In this document: in pieces, positions 520 to 18,900 of the stretch
How positions within the stretch are numbered: position 1 is the stretch's first letter
How the letters are laid out: each line of letters begins with the position of its first letter
Assembly (NCBI RefSeq): GCF_003334815.1
Contig: NZ_QOWO01000048.1
From: Escherichia coli
GTDB taxonomy: Bacteria; Pseudomonadota; Gammaproteobacteria; Enterobacterales; Enterobacteriaceae
DNA: 25,066 bases
Direction: 5' to 3' (one strand)
Program-made: the position numbers and the translations under genes
Notes under the pieces: model-generated
Seen by the model: only the letters and a program-made list of their open reading frames with translations
What the model was told of the DNA's origin: nothing
The model's database searches: none

Positions 520-882
520 TGGTGGAGCTGGCGGGAGTTGAACCCGCGTCCGAAATTCCTACATCCTCGGTACTACATGCTTAGTCAGTCTTTACATTCG
601 CTTGCCAGCTGCGGACGGACACGCCACTAACAAACTAGCCTGATTAAGTTTTAACGCTTCAACCCCAGGCAGGGCTTCCACGCGATCTCTTTTGGGTTTG
701 ACCTCTCTTGATCCCCGTCCTAAGAGCGGAGGCTAGGGAGAGAGGGCTCTAAGCAGGTTATTAAGCTGCTAAAGCGTAGTTTTCGTCGTTTGCGACTATT
801 TTTTGCGGCTTTTTACGAGGCCAACCGCCCCTCGGCATGCACCTTGGGTTTCGCAAATCCCGTCGAATCCAGAATCAGCCCC
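520..882 (-). ncRNA. ssrA: tmRNA (SsrA, 10Sa RNA), 363 nt
   Basis: Reverse complement reads GGGGCTGATTCTGGATTCGACGGG at the 5' end (882 downward) and ...GTTCAACTCCCGCCAGCTCCACCA at the 3' end (to 520), matching E. coli tmRNA. Internal tag reading frame present. Confidence 0.97.
761..793 (-). other. ssrA: tmRNA tag-peptide reading frame encoding ANDENYALAA plus stop
   Basis: Reverse complement of 761-793 is GCAAACGACGAAAACTACGCTTTAGCAGCTTAA = A N D E N Y A L A A stop, the canonical E. coli degradation tag. Confidence 0.9.
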
Positions 883-3018: not shown

Positions 3019-4680
3019 TTACGCTGCAAGCAGTTCTTTCGCATTCGCCAGTGTATTACGTGTGACTTCACTGCCACCAAGCAGGCGCGCCAGCTCTTGT
3101 AACCGCGCTTTTTTATTCAGGGATTGCATATGCGTTTCTGTCATCGCACCATCGGTTTCTTTGCTGACAAAATAGTGTTGATGACCACATCCCGCGACTT
3201 GTGGCAGGTGGGTAACACACATCACCTGAGTTGATTCGCCGAGTTGACGCAGCAGTTTGCCGACAACTGCCGCTGTTGGACCGCTAATCCCTACATCCAC
3301 TTCATCAAAAATCAGTGCCGGGGTTTCCATTTTACGCGCCGTGATGACCTGGATTGCCAGTGCGATGCGGGACAATTCACCACCGGATGCGACTTTGGCA
3401 ATAGGCTGCATTGGCTGACCTGGGTTGGTGGTTACCCGAAACTCAATACGATCGGCACCGTCAGCGCCCAGGTGATGCTCGTCAAATTTAACATCGATCG
3501 TAAACTGCCCATGCGGCATTGAGAGCGCATGCATACTGTCGGTGATCAGCTGTGCAAGTTCTTCTGCATATTGCTGGCGTTGTTGGTGTAATGCGCGCGC
3601 GATTTCCAGTGCCTGCTGATGATGTTTCGTTACCGCCAGCGCAAGCGTTTCTTGTGAGTCGGCCTGATCGTCCAGTTGCTGCTGTTCTTCCAGTAGCGAC
3701 TGGTAATACTGTGGCAATGCCTCAGGGCTGACGTGATGTTTACGTGCCAGCGAAATCTGTTTTGAGATGCGCTGTTCAAGTTCAAATAGTCGGTTGGGAT
3801 CGAGATCCAGACGATCGCAGTAGTGGCGCAGTTCATCGCTGGCTTCAGCAATCTGGATGGTAGCTTCTTCCAGCATATCAAGTACGCCGGACAGTTTGCT
3901 GTCCATGCCAATCAATTCGCTCACCAGTTGTTTAGCCGTGTAAAGCTGACTTTGCAGGTTTGCGTCTTCACCGTCGGCCATTAATGCCAATGCATTCTGG
4001 CTGGTGGTCAGCAATTGACCGCTGTTCGCCAGACGTTTGTACTCTTCGTCGATTTGTTCAAACTCTCCGGGCTGCGGATTAAATTCGTTAAGTTCTTTTA
4101 ATTGGTATTGCAGCAGTTCCGCACGGGCGGCGCGTTCCTGACTTAACTGTTGATGATGCGCGAGGTCACGGCAGCTTTGATGCCACAACTGATAACGTGC
4201 GGTCATTTCCTGCAGTAGAGAGGTTTCATTGGCATAGCCATCAAGCAGGAATTTTTGGTGCTCAGGTTTGGTGAGTAATTGATGAGCGTGCTGACCATGG
4301 ATCTGAATCAGCAACTGACCCAGTTCGCGCAGTTGTGACAGAGGAACAGCTGTACCGTTGATGAAACCACGGGAGCGACCATCGCTGCTGATCACGCGAC
4401 GAAGCAAACATTCATGCCCGTCTTCAAGCTGGTTTTCTTCCAGCCAGCGCAGAGCCGCTGGCGTATCTTTCAGAGAAAAACGGGCGCACAGGTCAGCGCG
4501 AGCAGCGCCGGTACGCACCATGTCGGCTTCAGCGCGACCACCGAGACAAAGACCGAGGGCATCTATTGCAATAGATTTACCCGCGCCGGTCTCGCCAGTT
4601 ATTACGGTCATGCCGCTATGAAAATCAATCTCAAGCTCACGAACGATAGCAAAGTTGCTGATGGTCAGTTGTGCCAACAT
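3019..4680 (-). CDS. recN: DNA repair protein RecN (SMC-like ATPase), 553 aa
   Basis: Translation [44 protein letters not shown]... with Walker A GETGAGKS; length and sequence match RecN. Confidence 0.97.
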
Positions 4681-14749: not shown

Positions 14750-15115
14750 TTAATTTAATCGTATTGTGCTGGCATTTTCATCAGCCCCTTTTTGCCATAC
14801 TTCATGCAGTTGGCTGGCATTTTCAACATTGTTGCAGCTGGCAGGAAAGCTTTTACCGGAAAGTCCTCGGGCATAAGTAAAATCGGTCTGGCAAGTTTTC
14901 TTTTGTCCTTCGGCATATCCTTTAAGGTATAGACCGCGATCCGCCTGTGAATCGCTAAATGCATCGTCATCTTTTATGGCGCTGCCCGATATCGCATCTT
15001 CCATACCGACATCATACCAGTCGGTGCTGGTCAAGGTTGGCGCGTGAGTATAAGGATCAATCTGACATCCGCTAACCAGTAAAGCCAACAAGGGGGCGAT
15101 AAACTTTTTCATCAT
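14750..15115 (-). CDS. yfiL: Lipoprotein YfiL, 121 aa
   Basis: From the internal ATG at 15113-15115: MMKKFIAPLLALLVSGCQIDPYTHAPTLTSTDWYDVG... with lipobox LVSGC. The ORF track version extends 13 codons upstream. Confidence 0.8.
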   Translation of the reverse strand: MMKKFIAPLLALLVSGCQIDPYTHAPTLTSTDWYDVGMEDAISGSAIKDDDAFSDSQADRGLYLKGYAEGQKKTCQTDFTYARGLSGKSFPASCNNVENASQLHEVWQKGADENASTIRLN

Positions 15116-15160
15116 TTCTTTCTCCTTTTTCAAAGCATAGCGGATTGTTTTCAAAGGGAG

Positions 15161-15230
15161 TGTAAATTTATCTATACAGAGGTAAGGGTTGAAAGCGCGA
15201 CTAAATTGCCTGTGTAAATAAAAATGTACG
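15161..15230 (+). promoter_or_regulatory. aroF: TyrR boxes upstream of aroF
   Basis: TGTAAA-tttatc-TATACA (15161-15178) and TGTAAA-taaaaa-TGTACG (15213-15230) fit the TyrR box consensus TGTAAA-N6-TTTACA; a weaker TGAAAA-N6-TTTATG lies at 15241-15258, overlapping the putative -35. Confidence 0.7.
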
Positions 15231-15239
15231 AAATATGGA

Positions 15240-15267
15240 TTGAAAACTTTACTTTATGTGTTATCGT
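15240..15267 (+). promoter_or_regulatory. aroF: Putative aroF promoter
   Basis: -35 TTGAAA (15240-15245), 16-bp spacer, -10 TATCGT (15262-15267), about 58 bp upstream of the aroF ATG and adjacent to the TyrR boxes. Confidence 0.5.
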
Positions 15268-15324
15268 TACGTCATCCTCGCTGAGGATCAACTATCGCAA
15301 ACGAGCATAAACAGGATCGCCATC

Positions 15325-16395
15325 ATGCAAAAAGACGCGCTGAATAACGTACATATTACCGACGAACAGGTTTTAATGACTCCGGAACAACTGAAGGCCG
15401 CTTTTCCATTGAGCCTGCAACAAGAAGCCCAGATTGCTGACTCGCGTAAAAGCATTTCAGATATTATCGCCGGGCGCGATCCTCGTCTGCTGGTAGTATG
15501 TGGTCCTTGTTCCATTCATGATCCGGAAACTGCTCTGGAATATGCTCGTCGATTTAAAGCCCTTGCCGCAGAGGTCAGCGATAGCCTCTATCTGGTAATG
15601 CGCGTCTATTTTGAAAAACCCCGTACCACTGTCGGCTGGAAAGGGTTAATTAACGATCCCCATATGGATGGCTCTTTTGATGTAGAAGCCGGGCTGCAGA
15701 TCGCGCGTAAATTGCTGCTTGAGCTGGTGAATATGGGACTGCCACTGGCGACGGAAGCGTTAGATCCGAATAGCCCGCAATACCTGGGCGATCTGTTTAG
15801 CTGGTCAGCAATTGGTGCTCGTACAACGGAATCGCAAACTCACCGTGAAATGGCCTCCGGGCTTTCCATGCCGGTTGGTTTTAAAAACGGCACCGACGGC
15901 AGTCTGGCAACAGCAATTAACGCTATGCGCGCCGCCGCCCAGCCGCACCGTTTTGTTGGCATTAACCAGGCAGGGCAGGTTGCGTTGCTACAAACTCAGG
16001 GGAATCCGGACGGCCATGTGATCCTGCGCGGTGGTAAAGCGCCGAACTATAGCCCTGCGGATGTTGCGCAATGTGAAAAAGAGATGGAACAGGCGGGACT
16101 GCGCCCGTCTCTGATGGTAGATTGCAGCCACGGTAATTCCAATAAAGATTATCGCCGTCAGCCTGCGGTGGCAGAATCCGTGGTTGCTCAAATCAAAGAT
16201 GGCAATCGCTCAATTATTGGTCTGATGATCGAAAGTAATATCCACGAGGGCAATCAGTCTTCCGAGCAACCGCGCAGTGAAATGAAATACGGTGTATCCG
16301 TAACCGATGCCTGCATTAGCTGGGAAATGACCGATGCCTTGCTGCGTGAAATTCATCAGGATCTGAACGGGCAGCTGACGGCTCGCGTGGCTTAA
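15325..16395 (+). CDS. aroF: Tyrosine-sensitive DAHP synthase AroF, 356 aa
   Basis: From the ATG at 15325: [66 protein letters not shown]...; the ORF track version extends 23 codons upstream. Confidence 0.95.
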
Positions 16396-16405
16396 GAGGT
16401 TTATT

Positions 16406-17527
16406 ATGGTTGCTGAATTGACCGCATTACGCGATCAAATTGATGAAGTCGATAAAGCGCTGCTGAATTTATTAGCGAAGCGTCTGGAACTGGTTGCTGA
16501 AGTGGGCGAGGTGAAAAGCCGCTTTGGACTGCCTATTTATGTTCCGGAGCGCGAGGCATCTATGTTGGCCTCGCGTCGTGCAGAGGCGGAAGCTCTGGGT
16601 GTACCGCCAGATCTGATTGAGGATGTTTTGCGTCGGGTGATGCGTGAATCTTACTCCAGTGAAAACGACAAAGGATTTAAAACACTTTGTCCGTCACTGC
16701 GTCCGGTGGTTATCGTCGGCGGTGGCGGTCAGATGGGACGCCTGTTCGAGAAGATGCTGACCCTCTCGGGTTATCAGGTGCGGATTCTGGAGCAACATGA
16801 CTGGGATCGAGCGGCTGATATTGTTGCCGATGCCGGAATGGTGATTGTTAGTGTGCCAATCCACGTTACTGAGCAAGTTATTGGCAAATTACCGCCTTTA
16901 CCGAAAGATTGTATTCTGGTCGATCTGGCATCAGTGAAAAATGGGCCATTACAGGCCATGCTGGTGGCGCATGATGGTCCGGTGCTGGGGCTACACCCGA
17001 TGTTCGGTCCGGACAGCGGTAGCCTGGCAAAGCAAGTTGTGGTCTGGTGTGATGGACGTAAACCGGAAGCATACCAATGGTTTCTGGAGCAAATTCAGGT
17101 CTGGGGCGCTCGGCTGCATCGTATTAGCGCCGTCGAGCACGATCAGAATATGGCGTTTATTCAGGCACTGCGCCACTTTGCTACTTTTGCTTACGGGCTG
17201 CACCTGGCAGAAGAAAATGTTCAGCTTGAGCAACTTCTGGCGCTCTCTTCGCCGATTTACCGCCTTGAGCTGGCGATGGTCGGGCGACTGTTTGCTCAGG
17301 ATCCGCAGCTTTATGCCGACATCATTATGTCGTCAGAGCGTAATCTGGCGTTAATCAAACGTTACTATAAGCGTTTCGGCGAGGCGATTGAGTTGCTGGA
17401 GCAGGGCGATAAGCAGGCGTTTATTGACAGTTTCCGCAAGGTGGAGCACTGGTTCGGCGATTACGCACAGCGTTTTCAGAGTGAAAGCCGCGTGTTATTG
17501 CGTCAGGCGAATGACAATCGCCAGTAA
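16406..17527 (+). CDS. tyrA: Bifunctional chorismate mutase / prephenate dehydrogenase TyrA, 373 aa
   Basis: Translation [55 protein letters not shown]... matches TyrA; 10-bp gap after aroF (operon). Confidence 0.97.
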
Positions 17528-18730: not shown

Positions 18731-18752
18731 AGTGTTGCCTTTTTGTTATCAA

Positions 18753-18784
18753 TAAAAAAGGCCCCCCGATTTGGGAGGCCTTAT
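18753..18784 (-). terminator. pheL: pheA attenuator terminator (leader 3:4 hairpin)
   Basis: On the minus strand: AAGGCCTCCC-aaatc-GGGGGGCCTT followed by TTTTTT, lying between the pheL stop and the pheA start. Confidence 0.75.
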
Positions 18785-18828
18785 TGTTCGTCTTCGCATT
18801 CTGTTTCACACGACGAAACGCCTCCCAT

Positions 18829-18876
18829 TCAGGGGAAGGTAAAAAAGAATGCGAAGAAAAACGGTATGTGTTTCAT
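18829..18876 (-). CDS. pheL: pheA leader peptide PheL (15 aa, Phe-rich)
   Basis: Reverse complement reads ATG AAA CAC ATA CCG TTT TTC TTC GCA TTC TTT TTT ACC TTC CCC TGA = [15 protein letters not shown]; seven Phe codons, the classical attenuation leader. Confidence 0.85.
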
Positions 18877-18900
18877 GTTTGTTTCCTTAAGTGACTTTAG

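Follow-up and report, generated by a model that had tools for sequence, protein, structure and literature searches.

Which gene is governed by the array of TyrR sites that lies between the divergent genes yfiL and aroF of Escherichia coli, and how do its individual boxes relate to the promoter beneath them? We addressed this question in a window of 25,066 nucleotides (the whole stretch of DNA analysed; contig NZ_QOWO01000048.1 of assembly GCF_003334815.1), in which the array (15161-15267) falls wholly within the 209-bp yfiL/aroF intergenic region, directly 5' of aroF-tyrA. The window matches E. coli K-12 MG1655, with 100% identity over the 1-kb stretch around the array; the MG1655 genome also encodes the regulator itself (tyrR, b1323), and the 1-kb stretch was found in all 5,426 complete E. 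coli genomes. Downstream of tyrA, the annotation places pheA and pheL in convergent orientation, while the RefSeq records at the aroF locus carry no annotated regulatory features. As detailed below, the array is almost certainly the classical three-box TyrR operator of the aroF-tyrA promoter, at which tyrosine brings about repression and RNA polymerase is excluded. This operator is already known, well described and strongly conserved, and the K-12 version is the same object with an identical sequence, from which nothing differs here.

Scanning for the consensus TGTAAA-N6-TTTACA, an 18-bp palindrome with 12 arm positions, returned the sites listed in Table 1. We take the upstream box to be box 3, the promoter-proximal strong box to be box 2 and the weak box to be box 1 in the numbering of the Pittard laboratory, and use these names throughout. 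Boxes with at least 10 of 12 arm matches are classed as strong and those with fewer as weak, with a G-N14-C pair that is invariant and essential (PMC4374768); by this rule, the array therefore counts two strong boxes and one weak. That is also how the first-pass annotation of this DNA had described it, and its two strong boxes and weaker third candidate were recovered with 11, 10 and 8 arm matches, respectively. The limits it had given for the array proved meaningful as well, as they run from the first base of box 3 to the last base of the -10 hexamer TATCGT. Its statement that the boxes overlap the putative -35 element, on the other hand, holds for box 1 and has to be withdrawn for both strong boxes, which end 10 bp (box 2) and 62 bp (box 3) upstream of this hexamer. 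The promoter in question was the single sigma-70-like site detected between 14900 and 15500 (TTGAAA / 16 nt / TATCGT). Box 1 takes in the entire -35 hexamer of this predicted promoter, a placement compatible with repression.

Table 1. Positions of the aroF-tyrA operator, its promoter elements, the neighbouring genes and the RNAs of the window.
Feature	Position	Strand	Basis or remark
yfiL (divergent lipoprotein gene)	start codon 15115	-	annotation of identical MG1655 record
Upstream strong TyrR box TGTAAATTTATCTATACA	15161-15178	.	11/12 arms, G-N14-C kept; centre ~-104.5 from inferred +1
Promoter-proximal strong TyrR box TGTAAATAAAAATGTACG	15213-15230	.	10/12 arms, G-N14-C kept; centre ~-52.5
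Weak TyrR box TGGATTGAAAACTTTACT	15236-15253	.	8/12 arms, G-N14-C kept; centre ~-29.5
Overlapping alternative register TGAAAACTTTACTTTATG	15241-15258	.	9/12 arms, without the C of G-N14-C
aroF -35 hexamer TTGAAA (predicted)	15240-15245	+	promoter scan; inside weak box
Extended -10 TGtTATCGT (predicted)	15259-15267	+	promoter scan; hexamer 15262-15267, 16-nt spacer to -35
Transcription start, A (inferred)	15274	+	promoter geometry, 7 nt past -10
aroF, tyrosine-sensitive DAHP synthase, operon gene 1	15325-16395	+	RefSeq annotation of identical MG1655 sequence
tyrA, chorismate mutase/prephenate dehydrogenase, operon gene 2	16406-17527	+	annotation and ORF list
tmRNA	520-882	-	Rfam
Phe leader, upstream of pheA	18752-18877	-	Rfam
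RyfD sRNA, upstream of clpB	22183-22321	+	Rfam

Counting loose consensus matches did not set the array apart, as the whole window held 7 matches with at most 3 mismatches compared with 11.0 ± 3.4 in shuffled sequences, a number not above chance. The claim therefore depends on match quality, and because the consensus count was uninformative, we used instead a position weight matrix (PWM) derived from other promoters of the regulon. This matrix was symmetrised and built from 12 TyrR boxes (8 strong, 4 weak) of the tyrP, aroL, aroG, mtr, aroP, tyrR and folA promoters (NC_000913.3), with zero aroF sites among them; a scan of the tyrB promoter from -350 to +30 did not recover a box, so that tyrB gave no training site. 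Scanning the window with such a matrix, the check suggested alongside the first-pass annotation, placed the two strong boxes at ranks 1 and 2 and the weak box at rank 5 of 25,049 positions. Box 3 scored 19.3 bits (19.3-19.9) and had no equal in 6 million Markov-1 positions, followed by box 2 with 17.5 bits (17.5-18.1; P ~3e-7 per position). Box 1 reached 10.05 bits (8.4-10.1; P ~9e-5 per position, with ~2.2 such sites expected per window) and is not statistically significant when considered alone; a site of this score would occur 22-24 bp away from a strong box with a chance of ~3e-4. The trained boxes themselves scored 15-21 bits when strong and 8.9-10.2 bits when weak, a range into which the 10.05 bits of box 1 fall.

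Besides, the scan returned two TyrR-like matches elsewhere in the window. One (TGTAAAGCTGACTTTGCA, 3939-3956; 13.2 bits, 0.28 expected per window) lies within the recN coding sequence, and the other (TGTAAAGGTAAGTATACC, 887-904; 11.0 bits, 1.2 expected per window) is found 5 bp upstream of the 5' end of the tmRNA gene ssrA. Both are probably chance matches.

Conservation of the array was assessed in an alignment of 17 Enterobacteriaceae genera, in which 22 of 36 arm positions were invariant compared with 4 of 107 positions elsewhere upstream (Fisher P = 8e-13). Mean conservation decreased from the arms (0.91) over the N6 spacers (0.73) to the remaining upstream sequence (0.54), and the arm means of the individual boxes were 0.86 for box 3, 0.92 for box 2 and 0.95 for box 1. 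The G-N14-C pairs of all three boxes (G15162/C15177, G15214/C15229 and G15237/C15252) are invariant columns in the 17 genera, while the four invariant positions outside the arms are G15242 (-35), C15247, and G15260 and T15262 of the extended -10. Spacing is maintained as well. All 15 Enterobacteriaceae loci matching the box 1 pattern have exactly 23 bp from the start of box 2 to that of box 1, as against 22 bp in Yersinia, Brenneria and Budvicia; 23 bp correspond to 2.2 helical turns, not exactly 2, and equal the spacing of the tyrP and aroP pairs. Box 3 precedes box 2 by 52-53 bp in most genera, by 61-62 bp in three genera and by ~107 bp in Erwinia and Pantoea, that is, by ~5, 6 and 10 helical turns. 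A weak box depends on a strong one close by and facing the same side of the helix (PMC7142922), and the conserved spacings agree with this requirement for cooperating boxes.

To extend the comparison beyond this family, one genome per species was scanned with AroF as the query; this yielded 80 loci, ranging from Escherichia albertii to Halomonas, with 79 usable upstream regions. These regions held 132 sites of at least 12 bits as compared with 3.3 ± 2.3 in Markov-1 resamples (~40-fold), and at least one such site occurred in 65 of the 79; a control of 77.6 kb of coding sequence contained 2.

Given the intergenic location, the array, or at least box 3, might serve the divergent yfiL, either instead of aroF or besides it. 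Box 3 precedes the yfiL start codon by 46-63 bp, and the promoter scan of 14900-15500 found no separate yfiL promoter, both of which could speak for such an assignment. However, among the 16 other Enterobacteriaceae loci in the alignment, no more than 6 have yfiL as a divergent neighbour, with Acerihabitans carrying it farther off, and the upstream box is kept where a neighbouring yfiL is lacking, as in Kluyvera, Superficieibacter, Klebsiella, Mangrovibacter and others. Nor did we find a link between yfiL and TyrR in the literature consulted. Because the upstream box is conserved irrespective of whether yfiL is present, we rejected this gene as the reason for that conservation, and consider it improbable that the array belongs to yfiL in either form.

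A second concern is whether box 1 is a TyrR box at all, or merely a -35 region conserved for RNA polymerase, with the two strong boxes repressing on their own. With a score of 8.4-10.1 bits, a site of this kind would turn up about twice per window by chance, and the TTGAAA that it contains is kept for promoter function, which may explain part of its conservation. Yet the right arm of the box (CTTTAC, 15247-15252) falls between the -35 and -10 elements, in spacer sequence that is not read by RNA polymerase, and is nevertheless invariant in the 17 genera, as is the TG-A upstream of the -35. Moreover, the box keeps G-N14-C and its offset of 23 bp to box 2, and in Yersinia, Serratia and Budvicia it even improves to 9 of 12 arm matches (TGGATTGAAAxxTTTACA; 12.3-14.0 bits). 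We therefore regard a pure promoter element as very unlikely and retain box 1 as the third box of the aroF operator.

Its register was a matter of choice between two overlapping frames. The alternative register (Table 1) has more consensus matches than box 1 (9 versus 8 of 12), is the one reported by a scan that tolerates at most 3 mismatches, and attains 7.8 bits and rank 6 with a PWM trained on strong boxes only. In the 12-site PWM, however, it falls to rank 19, and it is devoid of the C of G-N14-C, a pair that according to PMC4374768 does not vary and is essential. Conservation of its right arm ranges between just 0.47 and 0.88 per position, and the arm mean is 0.75, compared with 0.95 for box 1. 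On account of this difference in arm conservation, the comparison of sequences settles on 15236-15253; the other frame, rejected for its missing G-N14-C and its poorly conserved right arm, retains hardly any credibility. Least tenable of all, with a probability close to nil, is an origin of the matches by chance in A+T-rich intergenic DNA, as the loose count over the window might have suggested: the two best PWM scores of the window are 52 bp apart and precede a known TyrR-regulated gene (each P <= 3e-7 per position), the box positions are conserved across genera, and PWM ranks, orthologue enrichment and conservation together refute this reading.

How repression would operate at the aroF operator can be pictured from its layout. 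TyrR dimers would occupy the two strong boxes, and binding of tyrosine and ATP would lead to assembly of a TyrR hexamer, which would additionally fill the adjacent weak box and thereby hold the -35 element. With RNA polymerase kept out in this way, the cell would cease to make the tyrosine-sensitive DAHP synthase and TyrA; the upstream box presumably acts via the same hexamer. Mutational work by Garner and Herrmann, by Cobbett, and by Andrews et al. reportedly showed that all three aroF boxes contribute. In line with this scheme, the unliganded TyrR dimer binds strong boxes only, while tyrosine and ATP give rise to a hexamer that occupies weak boxes along with strong ones (PMC6524683, PMC4374768), and the tyrosine-induced hexamer denies RNA polymerase access at aroF-tyrA and aroLM (PMC10170061). 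The aroF promoter is subject to TyrR repression with tyrosine as the corepressor (PMC11878033), and aroF went up 39.5-fold in a tyrR mutant of Yersinia pestis (PMC4325908). The box geometry fits the hexamer-occlusion model exactly, with TyrR binding, tyrosine dependence, hexamerisation and polymerase exclusion all being taken from the literature. A full-text literature search by the box sequences themselves returned nothing relevant. Taken together, the tyrosine-mediated repression of aroF-tyrA that the first-pass annotation had proposed is supported by locus identity, the aroF-free PWM, half-site conservation, orthologue enrichment and published work.

Two other TyrR targets share parts of this architecture. 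Like aroF, aroL (aroLM) is equipped with three TyrR boxes, one of them strong and located far upstream, and is repressed by tyrosine via the hexamer (PMC10170061). Counted from the ATG, these are TGTAATTTATTATTTACA at -181, TGGAATTTTTTCTTTACA at -105 and, placed between these two strong boxes in contrast to aroF, a weak one at -128. A further difference is that aroL is under additional TrpR control (PMC5343134). The tyrP promoter resembles aroF in its adjacent strong/weak pair with 23 bp from start to start (at -109 and -86) and in its repression by the TyrR hexamer in response to tyrosine (PMC6524683), yet it has only two boxes instead of three. According to PMC4374768, a strong tyrP box would lie over the -35, whereas at aroF the -35 lies under the weak box. 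Finally, tyrP can also be activated by phenylalanine-bound TyrR (PMC6524683), which is not described for wild-type aroF.

Outside the Enterobacteriaceae, the arrangement of boxes changes or is lost. No TyrR box was detected in the upstream regions of three Shewanella loci (L063, L067, L069), nor in those of one Glaciecola and both Halomonas loci (among L072, L080 and L081). In a published reconstruction, aroF-tyrA belongs to the core targets of TyrR in most gammaproteobacteria but is TrpR-controlled in Shewanellaceae (PMC5343134), and the boxless Shewanella, Glaciecola and Halomonas loci would be consistent with a replacement of the regulator. Colwellia-type loci, from Colwellia and its relatives (L055, L056, L061, L065, L068, L074) carry a TyrR-like pair with 23-bp spacing ~200-250 bp upstream of the start of the match. 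The architecture in Vibrionaceae differs from that in Enterobacteriaceae: in addition to an upstream pair, aroF is preceded by a third strong TyrR box at ~-29 from the start codon, directly before the ribosome-binding site (about -26 to -33 from the ATG in L034-L036, L039, L040, L045, L049, L050 and L053). At the same offset, E. coli has an 8/12 pseudo-box (CGCAAACGAGCATAAACA, 15296-15313) of 3-4 bits and rank ~42-45, which overlaps an invariant block of the aroF UTR.

This block (TATCGCAAAC, 15293-15304) is invariant or nearly so in the 17 genera and thereby exceeds the promoter in conservation. It follows a predicted hairpin at the 5' end of the predicted aroF mRNA (AUCCUC-GCU-GAGGAU, 15274-15288; -6 kcal/mol) and precedes the aroF Shine-Dalgarno sequence AGGA (15313-15316). 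When 16 Enterobacteriaceae sequences were each folded singly, most of them formed a stem of 4-6 bp at the same place, in some cases with a changed sequence (UUCUC/GAGAA, CCCU/GGGG). RNAalifold did not recover this small hairpin from the 5' UTR alignment because the alignment staggers it. A study on GcvB predicted that it forms a strong duplex with aroF (-28.27 kcal/mol) yet found no regulation. Apart from the expected tmRNA, Phe leader and RyfD, an Rfam search of the window returned no RNAs.

Within E. coli, the operator region (15156-15226) is unusually polymorphic. Over the 191-bp regulatory region, identity to K-12 amounts to no more than 90-95% in 1993 of the 5426 genomes, whereas the 1 kb surrounding it never drops under 95%. 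The differences are concentrated in the interval separating box 3 from box 2 and in the N6 spacers. An alignment of six E. coli sequences with that of E. albertii has four substitutions between box 1 and the ATG, all of them in E. albertii. An exact K-12 allele of the 65-bp region with box 2 and box 1 is present in 2877 of 5426 genomes, and an allele in which box 2 reads CGTAAAGAAATGTGTACG (the CGTAAA allele, 9/12) is found, again as an exact match, in 562. Since box 3 lies so close to the yfiL start codon, TyrR could also gate yfiL. That it does so in Escherichia, Citrobacter and Enterobacter, and that box 2 alleles tune repression between E. coli lineages, is an improbable proposition.

In summary, the array before aroF serves as a positive control rather than a discovery: the first-pass annotation correctly identified a classical operator from the sequence alone, the three boxes, their register and their phasing were all reproduced, and existing knowledge of the aroF operator is left unchanged. 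This operator is routinely deleted or swapped in E. coli strains engineered for the production of aromatic amino acids. In its native place before aroF-tyrA, it is the TyrR operator through which the cell turns off tyrosine synthesis when tyrosine is plentiful.
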